Assembly (NCBI GenBank): GCA_036847185.1 | Contig: DAIUAM010000016.1 | Coordinates: 993-64,992, forward strand | Direction of reading: 5' to 3' | Length of the DNA stretch: 64,000 bases | Origin: Actinomycetota bacterium | GTDB lineage: Bacteria; Actinomycetota; UBA4738 | In this document: positions 9,325 through 54,558 of the stretch, piece after piece | How positions within the stretch are numbered: position 1 is the first letter of the stretch | Layout: the number at the start of each line of letters is the position of its first letter | Made by a program: the position numbers and the translations under genes | The notes under the pieces: model-generated | Databases searched by the model: none | What the model saw: the letters and a program-made list of their open reading frames with translations, nothing else | What the model was told of the DNA's origin: nothing

Positions 9325-10527
9325 TTGCGGAGCAAGACAACGGTGCTGCGCGTCGTCACCCTGGTGGCGCTGGTCGCCATCGTCGGGGCTGCGTGCAGCA
9401 AGAGCCCATCGGCAAGTTCCAAGAAGACCGTGAAGATCGCCGAGTTCGGCGCCTTCACGGGTCCGGTCGCACAGCTGGTGATCCCTGGCTACCAGGGGGC
9501 CAAGCTGGCCTTCGACCAGGCGAACGCCGGGAAGTTCGGAGCGCTTCCGGTCACGATCCAGTTCACACAGGAGGACACGACGGGTAGCGGTACGGTCATC
9601 CCGCCCATCGCGAAGAAGGTCAGCCAGGACCCGTCGTTCATCGGGGTGGTCGGCCCGAACTTCTCCGGGGAGTCACTGGCCGGAGGGCCGATCTTCAACT
9701 CGGCGGGCATCCCGTTCGTCACCGCCTCGGCGACGAAGACGGCGATCAACCAGAACCACTGGGCGTTCTGGTTCCGGGCGAACGGCAACGACGATGAGCA
9801 GGGGCCGGCCGGCGGGGATTACATCGCCAAGATCCTGAAGCCGAACTGCGCCTTCGTCACCAGCGACGACTCCCCGTACGGGACGGCGCTGGCGGGCACC
9901 GTGCAGACCACGATCACCAACGACGGCGGGACGGTCCAGGCTCAGATCAACGCCGTGCAGACCAGCAACGGCAGCGTTCACCCCACCGACTTCTCGGCCC
10001 TTGTCACCAAGATCCAGACGTCGGGCTGCAAGGCCGTCTACTACGGCGGGTACGACGCTGAGGCCGGGCTCCTCCGGACCCAGATGACGTCGGCCGGCCT
10101 CACCGACGTCACACTGGTCGGCGGCGACGGGATCGAAGACACCACGTATGCCACCGAGGCGAAGGCCTCCGGCGAGGCGACGGTTGCCACGTGCCCGTGC
10201 GGCGACATCACCAAGTCGACCAGCCCGGACGCCCAGGCGTTCGTCAAGGACTACACGGCCAAGTGGGGCGTGGCGCCGGGCATCTACTCGGGCGAGTACT
10301 ACGACGTGGCCCGGCTGTACATCAACGCCATCAAGGCCGGCAACATCACGCGCACCGCGATCAAGAACTACCTGGTGAAGGTGAACTACGTCGGGCTTAC
10401 CAAGACGTATTCGTTCCAGGACAACCATGAGCTCGTTCCGAGCGACGTGAAGATCTTCTACTGGAAGGACGTGAACCAGACGTTCACGTACCTCGGCGAG
10501 TCCTCGCAGGTCCTGGCCGCGGGCTAG
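9325..10527 (+). CDS. branched-chain amino acid ABC transporter substrate-binding lipoprotein (LivJ/LivK family)
   Basis: TTG start with a strong SD (GAAAGGAGGA). Signal peptide with a lipobox (IVGAAC). Type-1 PBP of the Leu/Ile/Val-binding family. Confidence 0.85.
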   Translation: MRSKTTVLRVVTLVALVAIVGAACSKSPSASSKKTVKIAEFGAFTGPVAQLVIPGYQGAKLAFDQANAGKFGALPVTIQFTQEDTTGSGTVIPPIAKKVSQDPSFIGVVGPNFSGESLAGGPIFNSAGIPFVTASATKTAINQNHWAFWFRANGNDDEQGPAGGDYIAKILKPNCAFVTSDDSPYGTALAGTVQTTITNDGGTVQAQINAVQTSNGSVHPTDFSALVTKIQTSGCKAVYYGGYDAEAGLLRTQMTSAGLTDVTLVGGDGIEDTTYATEAKASGEATVATCPCGDITKSTSPDAQAFVKDYTAKWGVAPGIYSGEYYDVARLYINAIKAGNITRTAIKNYLVKVNYVGLTKTYSFQDNHELVPSDVKIFYWKDVNQTFTYLGESSQVLAAG

Positions 10528-42618: not shown

Positions 42619-45516
<2,898 letters not shown>

Positions 45517-45517
45517 A

Positions 45518-47146
45518 ATGAGCGCCGCCGTGGTCCAGACCCGATCGATCCTCGCGAGGCACTGGCGGGCGTTCGCCGCCCTGGTTGCGGCCACCATCGC
45601 CGGTGCCGCCTGCGCGCCGGGCGGGAGCCCGCCCAGCTTCCCGGTGGTCGCCGCCACCGGCCTTCGCGTCCAGGTCGTCGATTCGCTGTACGACGCAGGC
45701 CGCTCCCCGTCGGTCGCGTTGGACAAGAACGGCAACCCGGAGGTCGCCTACCTCCTGTACCAGCCGGTCCTGAAGAAGGGGGATCTGCCCCCGCCGATCG
45801 TGGGCGGCGCGCCGCAACCCCCGTCCGTGATGCAAGCGGCGTATTCCGGCGGGACCTGGACCCGGGTGCCCGCCAGCGGCGGCGTCTCGCTCGGGCAGTC
45901 GGAGGCCGGCAAGGCGACGGCGATCGCGAACAAGGACGGCCAGGCCATCCCGGGGGTCAACGACGCCATGACCCTGGACGCGGCCGGAAAGCACCACATC
46001 GTGTGGGCCACCCCGTCCGGGCTCTTCTACACCGACGACTCCAACGGGACCTACGGGAGCCCGACGAAGATCAGCTCCGCACAGACGTTCGGGGCGTCCA
46101 TCGCGGTGGCCCCCGACGGTACTTCGTGGATCGCCTACTACGAAGGGTCGACCGTCAAGGTGGCAAGCGGCTCGGGCAGCACGTTCACGGAAGAGCAGGT
46201 CGCCACGACCAGCGGCGCGCCGGGAGCCACCGCGGGCGTGACGGCCATCGGAGCAGGGTCGAGCGGCCCGCAGGTCGCGTACGGCGACAACGGCACGACG
46301 GTGGTTGCCTCGAAGGTCGGGAACGCCTGGACGCCGACGCCGATCACGGGACCCGGCGGCTACGGTCTGTCGATGGCCCTCGACAAGAGCGGGAATCCGA
46401 ACCTCGCTTACTACGACCAGTCCGGCAACGTCTACGAGGTCGGATTGAACGGGGGAGGCCAGACGAAGCTGGCCACCGTGGAGCCGGCGAAGGGTACGAC
46501 GGGCCCTTCGGCGGGCTGGTCGACCGGGATCGCGGTCGATGGCTCCGGGGTCGACTACGTCGCCTGGTCCGACATCGGGCGAGGACTGGTCTACGTGGCG
46601 ACGAACGGGAGCGGCTCGTTCCAGACCCACCCCGTCCAGGGGAGCTTCGGCGGCCTCAACCCCTCGATCGCGGTCTCGGCCGACGCGCAGCACCTGGCGG
46701 TGGCGTGGTACGACGGGCCGGACGGCGACCTCGACATCGCGACGCCGCCGGCCGGCAGCCTCGCCCTGGCCTTCTCGCCCGCCCCCGTGGTCCTGCCGTC
46801 GGCGGGCCCGACCGCCCCACAGTGCTCGCCCGGCAGCTCGACCGACCTCTCCATCGCCGCCCCGGTCGGCGCCGCCGCCAAGGGATTCGACACGACCTGC
46901 CTCGCGGTCGCGGCCGGGAAGACGTTCACGGTGACCTTCGCGAACGACGACACCGGCGTGCCGCACGACTGGGCGCTCTTCGCGAACTCCGCCGCCACGA
47001 GCCCGATCGGCGGGGCCACCAGCCCGACCCCGGTCAGTCCGGGCAGCTCGCAGAAATACTCGCTGACGGCCCTGAAGGCAGGCACGTACTTCTACCACTG
47101 CGACTTCCACCAGACCACGATGACCGGCACGCTCGTCGTGAAGTAA
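45518..47146 (+). CDS. lipoprotein with 7-bladed-propeller-like domain and C-terminal type-1-copper cupredoxin domain
   Basis: Lipobox-like IAGAAC. Seven ~40-aa repeats ([DG].G.P.[VL]A[YW]...G..Y). C-terminal GVPHDW...YFYHCDFHQTTMTG carries H, C, H, M type 1 Cu ligands. Starts 1 nt after the uvrA stop. Confidence 0.7.
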   Translation: MSAAVVQTRSILARHWRAFAALVAATIAGAACAPGGSPPSFPVVAATGLRVQVVDSLYDAGRSPSVALDKNGNPEVAYLLYQPVLKKGDLPPPIVGGAPQPPSVMQAAYSGGTWTRVPASGGVSLGQSEAGKATAIANKDGQAIPGVNDAMTLDAAGKHHIVWATPSGLFYTDDSNGTYGSPTKISSAQTFGASIAVAPDGTSWIAYYEGSTVKVASGSGSTFTEEQVATTSGAPGATAGVTAIGAGSSGPQVAYGDNGTTVVASKVGNAWTPTPITGPGGYGLSMALDKSGNPNLAYYDQSGNVYEVGLNGGGQTKLATVEPAKGTTGPSAGWSTGIAVDGSGVDYVAWSDIGRGLVYVATNGSGSFQTHPVQGSFGGLNPSIAVSADAQHLAVAWYDGPDGDLDIATPPAGSLALAFSPAPVVLPSAGPTAPQCSPGSSTDLSIAAPVGAAAKGFDTTCLAVAAGKTFTVTFANDDTGVPHDWALFANSAATSPIGGATSPTPVSPGSSQKYSLTALKAGTYFYHCDFHQTTMTGTLVVK

Positions 47147-47164
47147 CCGGCTCGCGGGCCGCTC

Positions 47165-47641
47165 CTACCCTCGCGTCCCTACCGGATTCCGCCCCGGCCC
47201 GGCCGGGCCGGCAAGCTGCGTGAGGTCCCGCCCCGAGACGAGCGCCTCCGCAACGGTCGCCGTGTCCAACGACGACCGAAGGGCCTGGGCCGCCTCGAAC
47301 CAGGCCGGATGCACCGGGCACGGATCGTCGGGACGGCAGGTGGTGCCGCGCAGGGTGCATCGCTGGGGGAGAAGGGCCCCCTCAGAGGCTTCCACGACCT
47401 CGAGCAAGGTGATCTCCGACGGTGGGCGGGCCAGGCGGTATCCCCCCTCCCGCCCCGCTCGCGCTTCGACCAGGCCGGCTCGAACCGTGTCCCCGAGGAC
47501 CTGTGGCGTGTAGCTCACGGGGATGGACATCGAGCCCGAGATCTCCCGGATCTTGCGGTACGAACCGTCCCCCCAGGCCTCCCCCAGGTAGAGGATCGCC
47601 CGCACCGCGTAGTCCGCACGTCTCGAAAGTTGCAGGTCCAT
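47165..47641 (-). CDS. Rrf2-family transcriptional regulator (NsrR/IscR-like, Cys-x6-Cys-x5-Cys-x2-His cluster ligands)
   Basis: N-terminal wHTH (LSRRADYAVRAILYL). CTLRGTTCRPDDPCPVH cluster-binding motif. Divergent from nirK. Confidence 0.8.
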   Translation of the reverse strand: MDLQLSRRADYAVRAILYLGEAWGDGSYRKIREISGSMSIPVSYTPQVLGDTVRAGLVEARAGREGGYRLARPPSEITLLEVVEASEGALLPQRCTLRGTTCRPDDPCPVHPAWFEAAQALRSSLDTATVAEALVSGRDLTQLAGPAGPGRNPVGTRG

Positions 47642-47677
47642 CGGCCCGATCATACCCCTCGTTCAGTCTCTAGCCTA

Positions 47678-47700
47678 ACGTGTAGGAGTAAGCTACACGT
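47678..47700. promoter_or_regulatory. perfect inverted repeat ACGTGTAG-N7-CTACACGT in the rrf2/nirK divergent intergenic region (candidate Rrf2 operator)
   Basis: Read directly from the sequence. ~40 bp upstream of both the nirK ATG (47741) and the rrf2 start (47641). Confidence 0.5.
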
Positions 47701-47740
47701 GTTGGAGTCGAGGAGCACGCGGTCGGAAAGAGAGGTCCGG

Positions 47741-49222
47741 ATGGATGCGAACAGGAGCGAACGAGGCAACGCTGGGATCGCGGTCCTTGTGGTGCTGTCC
47801 CTGACGGCCCTGGGGGTCGGGACGGCCGGCGTGGTCCGCGGCGGGGCGCGGTCCTCGCGAGCGGTCCAGGCTGCTTCCGTGCCCTACCTGATGGCGGGGA
47901 GCGGCACCGGCCACGTGGTGAGCGTCGACCTGACGGCGAACGACACGACCATCCAGGAGATCGCTCCCGGCGTGAAGTTCAACGCCTGGACCTTCAACGG
48001 CACCGCACCGGGTCCCGTGATCCGCGTCCAGCAGGGCGACACCGTGCAGTTCACCCTCCACAACGCGTCGAAGAACATGTCCCATTCGATCGACTTCCAC
48101 GCCGCGCAGACGCCGTGGGACGTGAACTATCAGGCGGTGGCGCCTGGCAAGGTCTTCACCTTCAGTTGGGTGGCTCGGTTCCCGGGCGTGTTCATGTACC
48201 ACTGCGGGACCCCGCCGGTCATCCAGCACATCTCGAACGGGATGTACGGCGCGATCGTCGTCGAGCCCGCCCACACGCTCGCCCCGGCCCGCGAATACGT
48301 CTTGGTGCAGAGCGAGTTCTACCCTTCGGCCCAGCCGACGGGCGGCGTTTACTACGGCGACTACAACGCGATGCTGGCCAACCAGCCCCAGTACATCGTG
48401 TTCAACGGAGAGGCCAACCAGTTCAAGGACCACCCCTTGGTCGCCAGGCCGGGGGAGCTGATCCGGCTCTGGGTGGTGGACGCCGGCCCCAGCCACTGGT
48501 CGGCCTTCCACGTGATCGGCGCGCTGTTCGACAGCGCGTACGCGAGCGGGAACCCGGCGAACGCCGTGCACGGCGTGCAGACCGTAACCATCGCTCCCGG
48601 TGACGGGTGGATGATGGAGCTCCGGATCCCCGACGCCGGGCTGTATCCGTTCGTCACGCACTCCTTCGCCGATGCGGGGAGGGGGGCGCTGGGGATCATC
48701 AAGGTGGACCCGAAGGCGCCTGCGGCTCCGAAGTCGTACCCGACGATGGGCGACCCGATGACGGCCGGGGTGACGGCTGATACCGCGACCGGGACCACCG
48801 GCCCGAGCACCGGCGGCACCGGGATGGCCGGTATGCCCATGCCTTCGCCGGCGGCCGGCGGGACGTCTTCGCCTCCCGGTGCGGCCTCGTGCATGCCGAT
48901 GGGAACGAAGCTCGAGATCACCGCACCGGCCGGGGCGAGCACGTCGGGGTTCGACAAGACGTGCCTGGCCGCCCCCGCCGGGTTGACGTTCACCGTGACC
49001 TTCAAGAACCTGGACACGGGCATCCCGCACAACTTCGCGATCTACTCGGACTCGAACGCCACCACGTGGCTGGGCGGGGCGGAGAGCGCGGCGAAGATCG
49101 TGATGGGACCGGGGAGCGTCACCTACACGATCAAAGGGCTGCCTGCCGGCCAGTACTTCTTCCGGTGCGACATCCACCCCCAGACCATGAAGGGCGTGTT
49201 CATAGTCGCGGGCGGCCACTGA
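47741..49222 (+). CDS. nirK: copper-containing nitrite reductase (NirK) with Met-rich linker and extra C-terminal cupredoxin domain
   Basis: Signal/TM N-terminus. HNASKNMSHSIDFHAA (T1/T2 Cu His). MYHCGTPPVIQHISNGMYG (His-Cys...His...Met spacing identical to NirK). A MxxM-rich linker follows, then a second cupredoxin (GIPHNF...YFFRCDIHPQTMKG). Good SD (AAGAGAGG). Confidence 0.85.
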   Translation: MDANRSERGNAGIAVLVVLSLTALGVGTAGVVRGGARSSRAVQAASVPYLMAGSGTGHVVSVDLTANDTTIQEIAPGVKFNAWTFNGTAPGPVIRVQQGDTVQFTLHNASKNMSHSIDFHAAQTPWDVNYQAVAPGKVFTFSWVARFPGVFMYHCGTPPVIQHISNGMYGAIVVEPAHTLAPAREYVLVQSEFYPSAQPTGGVYYGDYNAMLANQPQYIVFNGEANQFKDHPLVARPGELIRLWVVDAGPSHWSAFHVIGALFDSAYASGNPANAVHGVQTVTIAPGDGWMMELRIPDAGLYPFVTHSFADAGRGALGIIKVDPKAPAAPKSYPTMGDPMTAGVTADTATGTTGPSTGGTGMAGMPMPSPAAGGTSSPPGAASCMPMGTKLEITAPAGASTSGFDKTCLAAPAGLTFTVTFKNLDTGIPHNFAIYSDSNATTWLGGAESAAKIVMGPGSVTYTIKGLPAGQYFFRCDIHPQTMKGVFIVAGGH

Positions 49223-49318
49223 CCGGACGGCACGCGGGCGGGGAGGGTTTGCGGAAAGACAGAACCTCCCCGTCCGCTTGCGGGGTGGGGCCCCGGCTCG
49301 CTCCTACAATGGTCTAGC

Positions 49319-51226
49319 GTGAGCGTCCGACGGCCGGAACCGTCCTCCATCCCCGACGAGCCGGGCGCGTACCTCTTCCGGGACTCCGACGGTCGCGTCG
49401 TCTACGTGGGGAAGGCGATCTCCCTCCGCAAACGGCTCGCTTCGTACTGGAGCCGCCCGCTGCATCCGCGCACCGAGGCGATGGTCGAGCACGCCGTCAC
49501 GGTCGACTGGATCCTGGCGAAGAACGAGGTCGACGCGCTGATGCTCGAGTACAACCTCATCAAGTCGCACCGGCCACGGTTCAACATCCGCTACCGCGAC
49601 GACAAGTCGTACCCGTACCTCGCGCTGACCGTGGGGGAGCGTTGGCCCCGGGCCAGGGTGATGCGGGGACCCAAGCGCAAAGGGGTCCGGTACTTCGGGC
49701 CGTACGGCCACGCCTACGCGATCCGGGAGACCCTCGACGCGCTGACCCGGGTCTTTCCTGTTCGAACGTGCAGCGACGGGTTCTTCGACCAGCGGGCCCG
49801 GGCGGGACGGCCATGCCTCTACTACGACATCGGGCGATGCGCCGGCCCGTGCGTGCCGGCATCGACCGGGGTCACCGAGGCGAGCTACCGCGAACAGGTC
49901 GACGCGCTGTCCGACTTCCTGGCCGGGCGACACAAGCCGATCCTGTCTCGCCTCGACGTGGAGATGCGGGGCGCCGCCGAGTCGCTCGAGTTCGAACGCG
50001 CCGCCAAGCTCCGGGACCAGCTCGCCGCCGCCCGCAAGGCGATCGAGAGCCAGGAGATGGTGCTCTCCCGCCGGGAGGACCTCGACGTCATCGGGATCGA
50101 AGAGGACGACCTCGAAGCCGCGTTGCAGGTGTTCTTCGTCCGGGGCGGCCGGGTGATGGGCCGGCGCGGGTGGGTGGTCGACAAGGTGGAGGACATCCAG
50201 CTCCCTGGGCTGATCTCGTCGTTCGTGCGCGAGCTGTACATGGAGCGCGAAGAGGTCCCCCGGCGCGTGCTGGTGCCGGTCCTTCCCGAGGAGCAGGAGC
50301 TGCTCGAGGAGTGGCTGTCCCGGGTCCGGGGCTCCCGCGTTCAGATCTCCGTCCCGGCCCGTGGCGACGGCCGCCGCCTGCTCCAGACGGTCACCCAGAA
50401 CGCGAAGGAAGCCTTCGTCCGCCACAAGCTGAAGCGGTCGTCGGACTTCGCTGCGCGGTCACGGGCGCTGCAGGAGCTGGGCGACGCTCTCGGCCTGCCG
50501 AACGGCCCGCTGCGCATCGAGTGCTACGACATCTCCAACCTCGGCCCGACGGACAAGGTCGCCTCGATGGTCGTGTTCGAGGACGGCCTGCCGAAGCGCA
50601 GCGATTACCGAAAGTTCGCCATCAAGAGCGTGCCGGGACAAGACGACTTTGCAAGCATGGAGGAAGTGCTCCGACGACGCCTGGCCCGCCTGCGCAGCGA
50701 AGGGGAACCGGCCGGCCCGGCCGGCCCAGAAGAAGAGACGCCCCGGCGGCGGCGGCGGTTCGCGTACTTCCCGTCGCTCATCGTGGTGGACGGAGGACGC
50801 GGGCAGCTCTCGGTGGCCGAACGGGTGCTGGCCGACTTCGGGCTCGCCATCCCTGTGGTCGGGCTCGCCAAGCGGCTGGAGGAGGTCTACCTCCCCGGCC
50901 AACCCCAACCCCTGCAGATCCCTCGCGGGTCGGAGGCGCTGTTCGTGCTCCAGCACATCCGGGACGAGGCGCACCGGTTCGCCATCACCTTCCACCGGCA
51001 GAAGCGGCAGAAACGCGCGCTCAGGTCCGTCCTGGACGATATCCCCGGCGTGGGCCCGTCGCGGAAGAAGGCCCTGCTCCGGCGATTCGGGTCGGTGGCG
51101 CGGCTGCGGACCGCCTCGTCAGAGGAGATCGACGGCACCCCGGGGGTGGGCCGATCCCTGGCCGGGGTGATCCATGAGCACCTCCATCGCGTAGAAGCAG
51201 TGACGGACGTACGGAGGGTGGGATGA
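49319..51226 (+). CDS. uvrC: excinuclease ABC subunit C
   Basis: GIY-YIG N-terminus (PGAYLFRDSDGRVVYVGKA), UvrBC-interaction region and a C-terminal HhH. Confidence 0.93.
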   Translation: MSVRRPEPSSIPDEPGAYLFRDSDGRVVYVGKAISLRKRLASYWSRPLHPRTEAMVEHAVTVDWILAKNEVDALMLEYNLIKSHRPRFNIRYRDDKSYPYLALTVGERWPRARVMRGPKRKGVRYFGPYGHAYAIRETLDALTRVFPVRTCSDGFFDQRARAGRPCLYYDIGRCAGPCVPASTGVTEASYREQVDALSDFLAGRHKPILSRLDVEMRGAAESLEFERAAKLRDQLAAARKAIESQEMVLSRREDLDVIGIEEDDLEAALQVFFVRGGRVMGRRGWVVDKVEDIQLPGLISSFVRELYMEREEVPRRVLVPVLPEEQELLEEWLSRVRGSRVQISVPARGDGRRLLQTVTQNAKEAFVRHKLKRSSDFAARSRALQELGDALGLPNGPLRIECYDISNLGPTDKVASMVVFEDGLPKRSDYRKFAIKSVPGQDDFASMEEVLRRRLARLRSEGEPAGPAGPEEETPRRRRRFAYFPSLIVVDGGRGQLSVAERVLADFGLAIPVVGLAKRLEEVYLPGQPQPLQIPRGSEALFVLQHIRDEAHRFAITFHRQKRQKRALRSVLDDIPGVGPSRKKALLRRFGSVARLRTASSEEIDGTPGVGRSLAGVIHEHLHRVEAVTDVRRVG

Positions 51227-54558
<3,332 letters not shown>

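Follow-up and report, generated by a model that had tools for sequence, protein, structure and literature searches.

The interval between uvrA and uvrC in a stretch of 64,000 nucleotides from an Actinomycetota bacterium (lineage UBA4738; GenBank assembly GCA_036847185.1, contig DAIUAM010000016.1; the whole stretch is referred to here as the window) raises the question whether the three genes located there, coding for a copper-binding lipoprotein, a regulator of the Rrf2 family and a copper nitrite reductase (NirK), constitute one functional unit or have different histories. The initial annotation had interpreted them as a self-contained cassette, with the lipoprotein as dedicated electron donor, wedged into a position where related genomes would have only repair genes. 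The three genes are real, the lipoprotein gene starting 1 nt past the uvrA stop codon as described there, and profile searches recovered the cupredoxin, Rrf2 and copper nitrite reductase families for the respective proteins. Gene order in related genomes nevertheless leads to another reading, which we consider probable, and according to which the locus would consist of two layers: a resident, uvrA-coupled lipoprotein with a propeller and a cupredoxin domain, and an inserted, Rrf2-regulated three-domain NirK with a fused cupredoxin of the host type. Situated beside the lipoprotein gene, the rrf2-nirK pair represents a regulated nitrite-reductase unit of known kind in a variant form, and not a new three-gene cassette.

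A uvrC-based synteny scan with one genome per species yielded 80 loci, and in about 30 species with a uvrC 69-80% identical to that of the window the gene order is uvrA, lipoprotein gene, uvrC, rapZ, the lipoprotein gene being full length and both the Rrf2 gene and the NirK core being absent (the uvrA genes of the closest relatives are 76-82% identical to that of the window). Where its start can be resolved in these relatives, the lipoprotein gene begins between -4 and +57 nt from the uvrA stop codon, with several pairs overlapping by 4 nt, and the encoded protein always has a signal peptide and a lipobox cysteine. Because this close junction is conserved among relatives, the 1-nt junction in the window reflects a clade-wide coupling to uvrA, and both genes are probably co-transcribed. 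In one relative (L007) uvrA immediately adjoins uvrC, and the loci of more distant Actinomycetota lack the lipoprotein gene. As part of the two-layer reading, and with the same confidence as the whole, the uvrA-lipoprotein pair would have been inherited vertically in the clade and the lipoprotein would have a role independent of NirK. The prediction that related genomes carry only repair genes between uvrA and uvrC thus fails, since about 30 of them have the lipoprotein gene there. Of the presumed accessory status of the locus, the part concerning the rrf2-nirK pair stands, as this pair is missing from the same species, whereas the lipoprotein gene is conserved and syntenic in the clade and in the annotation's own terms has to be counted as non-accessory.

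That the three genes still form one co-regulated cassette, in which the lipoprotein cupredoxin donates electrons specifically to NirK, is therefore improbable. The genes are adjacent, the lipoprotein and NirK are both extracytoplasmic copper proteins with cupredoxin domains that are 50% identical, and a separate cupredoxin gene directly upstream of the nirK with the closest core (locus L086) indicates that cupredoxin partners exist in this group of NirKs. However, the lipoprotein gene is kept together with uvrA in species without nirK in the interval; a full-length homologue of it was not found at any of the Rrf2-NirK loci elsewhere, where the cupredoxin domain alone cross-matches; no copy of the palindrome that separates rrf2 from nirK was found near it in the window; it is convergent with rrf2, the stop codons being 18 nt apart; and NirK possesses a fused cupredoxin of its own.

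In the lipoprotein, of 542 residues, a signal peptide with lipobox Cys32 (45518-45613) is followed by a beta-propeller of seven blades (residues 50-410, 45665-46747), which a disordered linker connects to a type 1 copper cupredoxin domain (residues 436-542, 46823-47143; Pfam Cupredoxin_1/Copper-bind, residues 453-542) with the ligands H483, C528, H531 and M535. The first three ligands are invariant and M535 is at least 90% conserved, and Cys32 is kept in at least 90% of 44 homologues; within the N-terminus (...AFAALVAATIAGAAC32APGG) the residue at -3 is a Gly, which is non-canonical for a lipobox. In the AlphaFold2 model the mean predicted local distance difference test score (pLDDT) is 83.8, with about 90 for the cupredoxin domain, and a Foldseek search with the propeller returned seven-bladed lectin propellers and sialidases, a resemblance that is generic only. 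The family is small (66 proteins) and is called lipoCup in the following. Across the clade a DNA-repair gene is thus conserved beside the gene of an extracytoplasmic copper protein (junctions in L006-L034; 45514-45520 in the window). Some relatives have a second cupredoxin, as a domain or as a small gene, that is located between the cupredoxin part of the lipoprotein gene and uvrC (L009, about 9560-9940; L013, 2726-2962; L014, 9670-9939), and on this account the spacer that holds rrf2-nirK in the window is a recurrent site of cupredoxin gain.

As for NirK, the open reading frame (ORF) that had been called mechanically (47309-49222) is too long. With the start corrected to the ATG at 47741, which has GAGAGG in front of it, the protein comprises an N-terminal membrane helix (residues 9-29), a two-domain core (residues 57-330, 47909-48730), a low-complexity linker and a C-terminal cupredoxin (residues 384-493), in agreement with the Pfam domains Cu-oxidase_3/_2 and C-terminal Cupredoxin_1/Copper-bind (residues 406-489, or 550-633 in the numbering of the long ORF). 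The annotation was right that the copper ligands are intact and that a cupredoxin domain is added. Among 25 homologues the type 1 ligands H115, C155, H163 and M168, which align with those of Geobacillus NirK, the type 2 ligands H120, H154 and H307, and the catalytic residues D118 and H257 are all invariant. In NirKs, domain II of the neighbouring subunit supplies one of the three type 2 His. The motifs in which they lie, i.e., HSIDFH (type 1 His, catalytic Asp, type 2 His), YHCGT..H....M, FHVIG (catalytic His) and THSF (type 2 His), all align with Geobacillus, the motifs common to both being HSxDFH, YHCGT...H....M, FHV(I/V)G and THxF. The type 1 site of the C-terminal domain is complete as well, with H430, C476 and M483 invariant and H479 present in at least 90% of the homologues. 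The closest solved cores are the NirKs of Geobacillus thermodenitrificans and G. kaustophilus (PDB 3WKQ, 3WI9; E 9e-66, about 41-42% identity), on which the AlphaFold2 core of the window NirK superposes with a template modelling score (TM) of 0.89 and a root mean square deviation (rmsd) of 1.8 Å. In general, the protein is closer to the enzymes of Geobacillus, Nitrosomonas and Neisseria and to three-domain NirKs (126-226 bits) than to those of the Achromobacter type (about 83-94 bits).

It is extremely improbable that the protein is a laccase-like multicopper oxidase and not a nitrite reductase. Its match to the NCBIfam model TIGR02376 (Cu_nitrite_red; 1.7e-55, 188.7 bits) stays below the equivalog cut-off of 296.3 bits, and some sources label its homologues 'multicopper oxidase domain-containing protein'. 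However, the ligands of both copper sites and the catalytic Asp and His are all invariant, the best matches in sequence and fold are the experimentally characterised NirKs just mentioned, and models of laccase and CueO reach only 18-20 bits. On the basis of the ligands and the best matches a laccase or other multicopper oxidase identity was rejected. The sequence therefore supports the identification of the window protein as a well-formed three-domain copper nitrite reductase.

The Geobacillus enzymes consist of two domains and, unlike the window NirK, lack a fused C-terminal cupredoxin. The one solved NirK that bears such a domain is TsNirK from Thermus scotoductus SA-01 (PDB 6HBE; PMC6400189), in which, as in the window NirK, a long linker joins the two-domain core to a C-terminal cupredoxin whose type 1 copper site is of the His2-Cys-Met kind, and which is the top structural match, colinear over all three domains at 28% identity. 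For TsNirK an electron route T1CuC -> T1CuN -> T2Cu has been proposed, and the enzyme has a Gln as axial ligand at T1CuN and a Ser replacing the catalytic Asp (PMC6400189). In contrast, the window NirK has the canonical Met168 and Asp118, and so shares the architecture but represents another active-site subtype; further differences are the C-terminal loop, which is Cx2Hx3M in the window NirK and Cx2Hx2M in TsNirK, and domain III, which in the window NirK is of the host-clade lipoprotein type. More than 5,800 homologues of the window NirK were found, and among the 120 best listed all but one (P0006) have a cupredoxin-type C-terminal Pfam domain. In sources giving a name, the organisms are metagenome-assembled genomes of Actinomycetota. 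Beyond a twin that is 99% identical, the nearest homologues are about 57-59% identical overall.

The rrf2-nirK segment, which is about 2.1 kb in size, lies between the stop codon of the lipoprotein gene and the resident promoter of uvrC. Just past the nirK stop codon lies a hairpin formed by an inverted repeat with 22-nt arms that are 82% complementary; the 73-nt stretch including it (49223-49295) has a folding energy of -46.1 kcal/mol (z -3.86), and none of 200 shuffled sequences was as stable, so that the hairpin is probably a terminator insulating uvrC. On the uvrC side, inspection by eye showed a TAnnnT box (TACAAT, TAGAAT, TAGGAT) in the window and in the ten relatives compared (L006-L012, L026, L030, L034). 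It precedes the uvrC start codon by 6-11 nt in the window and most relatives, lies farther upstream in two or three of the latter, and also occurs in L170 (see below). In the window it is found 8 nt before the uvrC GTG. This box is probably the resident uvrC promoter, from which a leaderless uvrC mRNA would be transcribed.

The short metagenome contig L170 represents a second lineage, its uvrC being 84% identical to that of the window and thus closer than that of any species representative, and on it uvrC is immediately preceded by a nirK, the core of which is 74% identical, with a similar hairpin after the nirK gene. Because L170 also has nirK in this position, the insertion is common to at least two lineages while being absent from the next 30. 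The NirK of this contig (positions 1-460) has a lipoprotein signal (LTAC) where that of the window has a membrane helix, its reading frame changes near codon 86, and the two loci resemble each other at the DNA level only from 47895 of the window onwards. That rrf2-nirK was already present between uvrA and uvrC in a common ancestor and was repeatedly lost would agree with this second occurrence at the same site as well as with the G + C content of the segment (0.66-0.72), which is close to that of the flanks. However, the pair is missing from this position in about 30 species-level relatives, among them the four whose uvrC is most similar (76-80% identical), and likewise in more distant Actinomycetota, and homologous Rrf2-nirK pairs are found elsewhere in unrelated contexts, all of which makes such an ancestral presence highly improbable.

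Compared to its core, which nests inside ordinary NirKs (67-79% identity), the C-terminal cupredoxin of the window NirK has other affinities. Two 4-residue insertions (GASxxGFD and LGGAxS) that are typical of the lipoCup family occur in the C-domains of the window and L170 NirKs and are absent from all other NirK C-domains inspected (24 homologues and four more). In comparisons with hidden Markov models (HMMs), the window C-domain scores 155 bits with the lipoCup domain and 122 bits with the NirK C-domain, whereas all 117 other NirK C-domains favour the NirK C-domain model by at least 29 bits. When BLAST matches are ranked by bit score, the twin and the L170 NirK (P0018) are followed by cupredoxins of the lipoproteins with 114-136 bits, ordinary NirK C-domains reaching 94-108 bits, and in neighbour-joining (NJ) bootstraps the window C-domain falls outside the other NirK C-domains in 63 of 100 replicates and among them in 7. 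The closest NirK core, P0006 of locus L086 (79%), in turn has a different, plastocyanin-like C-terminal domain, and as this is yet another domain type, replacement does occur in this group of NirKs. At L086 (1610-3613) there is no adjacent Rrf2 gene, and a 170-aa gene of the plastocyanin/azurin family lies immediately upstream of nirK. The 50% identity of the window C-domain to the cupredoxin of the neighbouring lipoprotein is too low for a recent conversion, and the second cupredoxins of L009, L013 and L014 were rejected as donors, being only 37-43% identical.

Read most economically, these comparisons suggest that a domain of the host-clade cupredoxin type took the place of the earlier fused domain for electron entry, which would make the link between lipoprotein and NirK an evolutionary and not an operonic one. 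It might be argued that the likeness is a retained ancestral form, or due to convergent insertions, with no replacement having taken place, given that overall identity is about 50% for both domain families, that some lipoCup members miss one of the insertions (e.g., P0150) and that the NJ support amounts to only 63 of 100. This is unlikely, however, in view of two separate insertions with matching sequence that are shared by just the window and L170 NirKs among the NirK C-domains inspected, the uniform preference of the 117 others for their own model, the position of the core within ordinary NirKs and the other domain type in P0006.

The regulator gene belongs together with nirK in a way in which the lipoprotein gene does not. 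Each of the eight genome contexts obtained for homologues of NirK has an Rrf2 gene immediately upstream of nirK, divergent in seven and co-directional in one, with different flanking genes each time, and a divergent pair was also found in 11 metagenome loci (L087-L091, L093, L098-L100, L120, L160); most two-domain NirKs have no Rrf2 neighbour. Judged by gene order, rrf2-nirK is a conserved two-gene module. With the Rrf2 of L091 the window protein shares 79% identity, and with the remaining linked Rrf2 proteins 44-56%. At L091 (2837-4991) the intergenic region resembles that of the window, the NirK core is only 60% identical, and the neighbours are others (M23 peptidase, flavodoxin). The locus may thus be a mosaic of three parts, or the sampling may be too sparse to tell.

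With the corrected nirK start, the divergent intergenic region of the window amounts to 87 bp, and the operator-like palindrome pointed out in the initial annotation is indeed located in it. The main palindrome, AACGTGTAG-GAGTAAG-CTACACGTG (9-7-9; core ACGTGTAG-N7-CTACACGT), conforms to a consensus AAC[G/C]TTnAG-N7-CTnnA[C/G]GTT that is common to 19 independent rrf2-nirK intergenic regions. The best site per locus averages 13.4 of 16 over the 15 loci first scored, compared to 8.5 +/- 0.2 in shuffled sequences; as these loci had themselves served to define the consensus, the test is partly circular, albeit with a large margin. When one mismatch at most is allowed, the consensus has a single match in the 64-kb window, at the palindrome itself, and none in 100 shuffles. 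A weaker site (12 of 16 positions) overlaps the main one and shares its central ACGT core, so that ACGT cores follow each other at a spacing of 19 bp, and a second site offset by -18 to -19 nt is also seen in 9 of 14 other loci scored. Its conservation supports the palindrome as an operator-like element. The predicted operator, AACGTTnAG-N7-CTnAACGTT, differs from what we take to be the motif of NsrR.

The Rrf2 protein has the winged helix-turn-helix domain of the family at its N-terminus (PF02082, residues 9-136) and scores 97.6 bits against TIGR00738 (cut-off 73.3); its translation may alternatively start at Met5 (47641). The motif Cx6Cx5Cx2H given for it at first is correct and corresponds to C99, C106, C112 and H115, which together with D14 are invariant in 16 NirK-linked Rrf2 homologues; the three Cys correspond to the conserved triad that binds an Fe-S cluster in this family. 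However, the protein does not reach any of the NCBIfam equivalog cut-offs (IscR, RirA, NsrR). With the IscR model it reaches 59.8 bits (cut-off 207.6) and with the NsrR model (NF008240) 42.6 bits (cut-off 182), IscR, RirA and the SUF regulator all scoring higher than NsrR. Among solved Rrf2 structures IscR (E. coli, PDB 4HF1; Thermincola, 4CIC) scores best with the NirK-linked profile, and the Cys3-His positions of the window Rrf2 align one-to-one with C92, C98, C104 and H107 of IscR, although the first Cys loop has one extra residue and the context is a different one, the window Rrf2 being linked to nirK with no isc or suf genes nearby. It is not an orthologue of NsrR either, in which the corresponding spacing is Cx5Cx5C. 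Since the equivalog cut-offs are missed and IscR, RsrR and NsrR are scored about equally, the NirK-linked Rrf2 proteins may constitute a separate, uncharacterised subfamily.

Control of nirK by NsrR is known from Nitrosomonas (N. europaea), Neisseria and Chromobacterium (Rodionov et al. 2005, PMC1274295), and the window pair resembles such NsrR-regulated nirK (aniA) genes in that an Rrf2-family Fe-S repressor would lie beside, or act on, a copper nitrite reductase gene via a palindromic operator; it differs from them in its actinobacterial host and its three-domain NirK target. Rrf2-nirK could also be a regulator-target unit in which Rrf2 does not sense nitric oxide (NO) but reports Fe-S or iron status, oxygen or redox state in the manner of IscR, RirA or RsrR, or acts as an activator. 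Such a role would be in line with the exact match of its ligand set to the Cys3-His scheme of IscR, with the ranking of the NCBIfam models and with an operator presumably unlike the published NsrR motifs. We regard it as not very likely, since a regulator gene so strictly linked to that of an enzyme producing NO would be expected to respond to NO or nitrite, genes for Fe-S assembly are absent nearby, the NsrR-type Asp D14 is invariant, and NsrR-nirK regulation provides a precedent.

Regulation by NO, repression via the palindrome and the electron path outlined in the following are deduced from knowledge of the protein families and from conservation. A holo-Rrf2 dimer would bind to the 25-bp palindrome and the overlapping weaker site in the shared promoter region, thereby repressing nirK and probably also rrf2 itself. 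Release of the repressor would follow when the cluster, bound by the three Cys and His or Asp, is modified by NO or by a different signal of the nitrosative or redox kind. NirK, according to its sequence and the solved structures of its family, would be exported and anchored outside the membrane by its N-terminal helix, reducing nitrite to NO at the type 2 copper with electrons that enter at the fused C-terminal cupredoxin and proceed along T1CuC -> T1CuN -> T2Cu, as proposed for TsNirK. The hairpin after nirK would shield the resident, probably leaderless uvrC promoter, and the replacement of the domain would have plugged the acquired NirK into the electron supply of its host.

A number of observations do not fit easily with the picture of an inserted, Rrf2-controlled and domain-swapped NirK. 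Besides the TIGR02376 score below the equivalog cut-off, the AlphaFold2 monomer of the complete NirK deviates from 6hbe by an rmsd of 14.4 Å over 485 columns, so that the placement of domain III in TsNirK, against domain I of the same subunit and with about 14 Å separating the type 1 coppers, is not reproduced, with linker residues 348-383 having a pLDDT below 50. The tree support for a domain replacement is moderate, 63 of 100 on 102 columns, and blastn with 48780-49320 against the loci then fetched, which did not include L170, gave matches of 66-72% over stretches of more than about 130 nt to both families and none past the stop codon. Upstream of the L170 nirK, no Rrf2 start is found in the 200 nt available. 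With regard to the signal, the profile of NirK-linked Rrf2 proteins scores IscR, RsrR and NsrR (5n07) structures about alike (60-66 bits), and the protein has both the IscR-type His (H115) and the NsrR-type Asp (D14). A simple scan of 45300-49450 for promoters of the sigma-70 type found none, so that the overlap of operator and promoter is an assumption, the sigma-70 consensus being probably unsuited to a high-GC actinobacterium. Finally, mobility genes, a tRNA or a convincing target duplication are absent at the insertion, and Rfam and tRNA scans returned only two tRNA-Leu genes, both distant, and no RNA element or tRNA integration site at the locus.

The one candidate for a target-site duplication, CCGGCTCGC...GCTCCTAC, was noticed by eye at 47147-47172 and 49292-49306. 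It was not reported by the repeat search, is short, interrupted and GC-rich, and is considered unproven. Its left copy overlaps the stop codon of rrf2 and its right copy the start of the uvrC -10 box, which might reflect a duplication at the junctions or chance in GC-rich DNA.

The coordinates of all features are compiled in the table. The locus is embedded in a block of actinobacterial core genes (dnaE, trpC, polA, rpsA, coaE, uvrB, uvrA, uvrC, rapZ, gap, pgk, tpiA), and nar, nor or nos genes are not found within the 64 kb. In the window rapZ is directly followed by gap (51291-53362), with neither yvcK nor whiA between them, whereas in Streptomyces and Mycobacterium these two genes separate rapZ from gap. 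The adjacency fits a deep-branching uncultured lineage of Actinomycetota, the next-nearest uvrC relatives being Acidimicrobiia. On the contig of the 99% twin (L001, GCA_002405235.1; 3609-3938) the match to uvrC is split into residues 1-117 and 159-635, which probably is due to an assembly gap or error.

Table. Features of the uvrA-uvrC interval, with positions in the window and the evidence for each
Feature	Position	Strand	Evidence and remarks
uvrA	42619-45516	+	Context; upstream partner of the lipoprotein gene; Pfam UvrA_inter, UvrA_DNA-bind, ABC_tran
Lipoprotein gene (lipoCup, 542 aa)	45518-47146	+	Pfam, AlphaFold2, synteny
Rrf2-family regulator (162 aa)	47165-47653	-	Pfam Rrf2, 2.7e-28
Weaker second operator-like site	47658-47682	.	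12/16 to consensus
Main operator-like palindrome	47677-47701	.	Common to 19 loci
Three-domain NirK (493 aa)	47741-49222	+	TIGR02376, 188.7 bits; ligand alignment
NirK C-terminal cupredoxin, lipoCup type	48890-49219	+	Insertions, HMM, BLAST, NJ
Hairpin after the nirK stop codon	49230-49281	+	Inverted repeat; folding energy
-10-like box TACAAT before uvrC	49305-49310	+	By eye; window, relatives, L170
uvrC	49319-51226	+	Context; downstream border of the insertion; Pfam UvrC domains

For the annotation of such loci, it follows that two adjacent copper proteins need not be a cassette, as here the lipoprotein goes with uvrA. Uncultured Actinomycetota of soils and sediments very commonly carry genes for NirKs that end in a cupredoxin domain, and such organisms are counted in metagenome surveys as nitrite reducers and as sources of NO and nitrous oxide (N2O). 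TsNirK is the sole enzyme of this architecture studied so far, and in the literature searched nothing specific was found on the regulation of three-domain NirKs, including the pairing of Rrf2 and nirK in actinobacteria. As control of nirK by Rrf2 proteins of the NsrR type is already known in proteobacteria, the regulatory logic has a precedent. What the comparison adds is a concrete, testable operator and regulator for abundant and unstudied actinobacterial nitrite reductases, evidence for Rrf2-nirK as a two-gene unit in many unrelated neighbourhoods, and a first hint of host-specific domains being exchangeable for the fused one through which electrons enter. Taking both aspects together, it is conceivable, though we propose it only tentatively, that the acquired NirK was adapted to the bacterium's own respiratory chain by exchanging its C-terminal cupredoxin for the type found in the uvrA-coupled lipoprotein, and that the NirK-linked Rrf2 proteins form a subfamily across the Actinomycetota dedicated to three-domain NirK and recognising the predicted operator. 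If true, the fused domain of three-domain NirKs would be an exchangeable, host-specific 'plug', and the nitrite reducers among soil actinobacteria would have a directly testable regulon.

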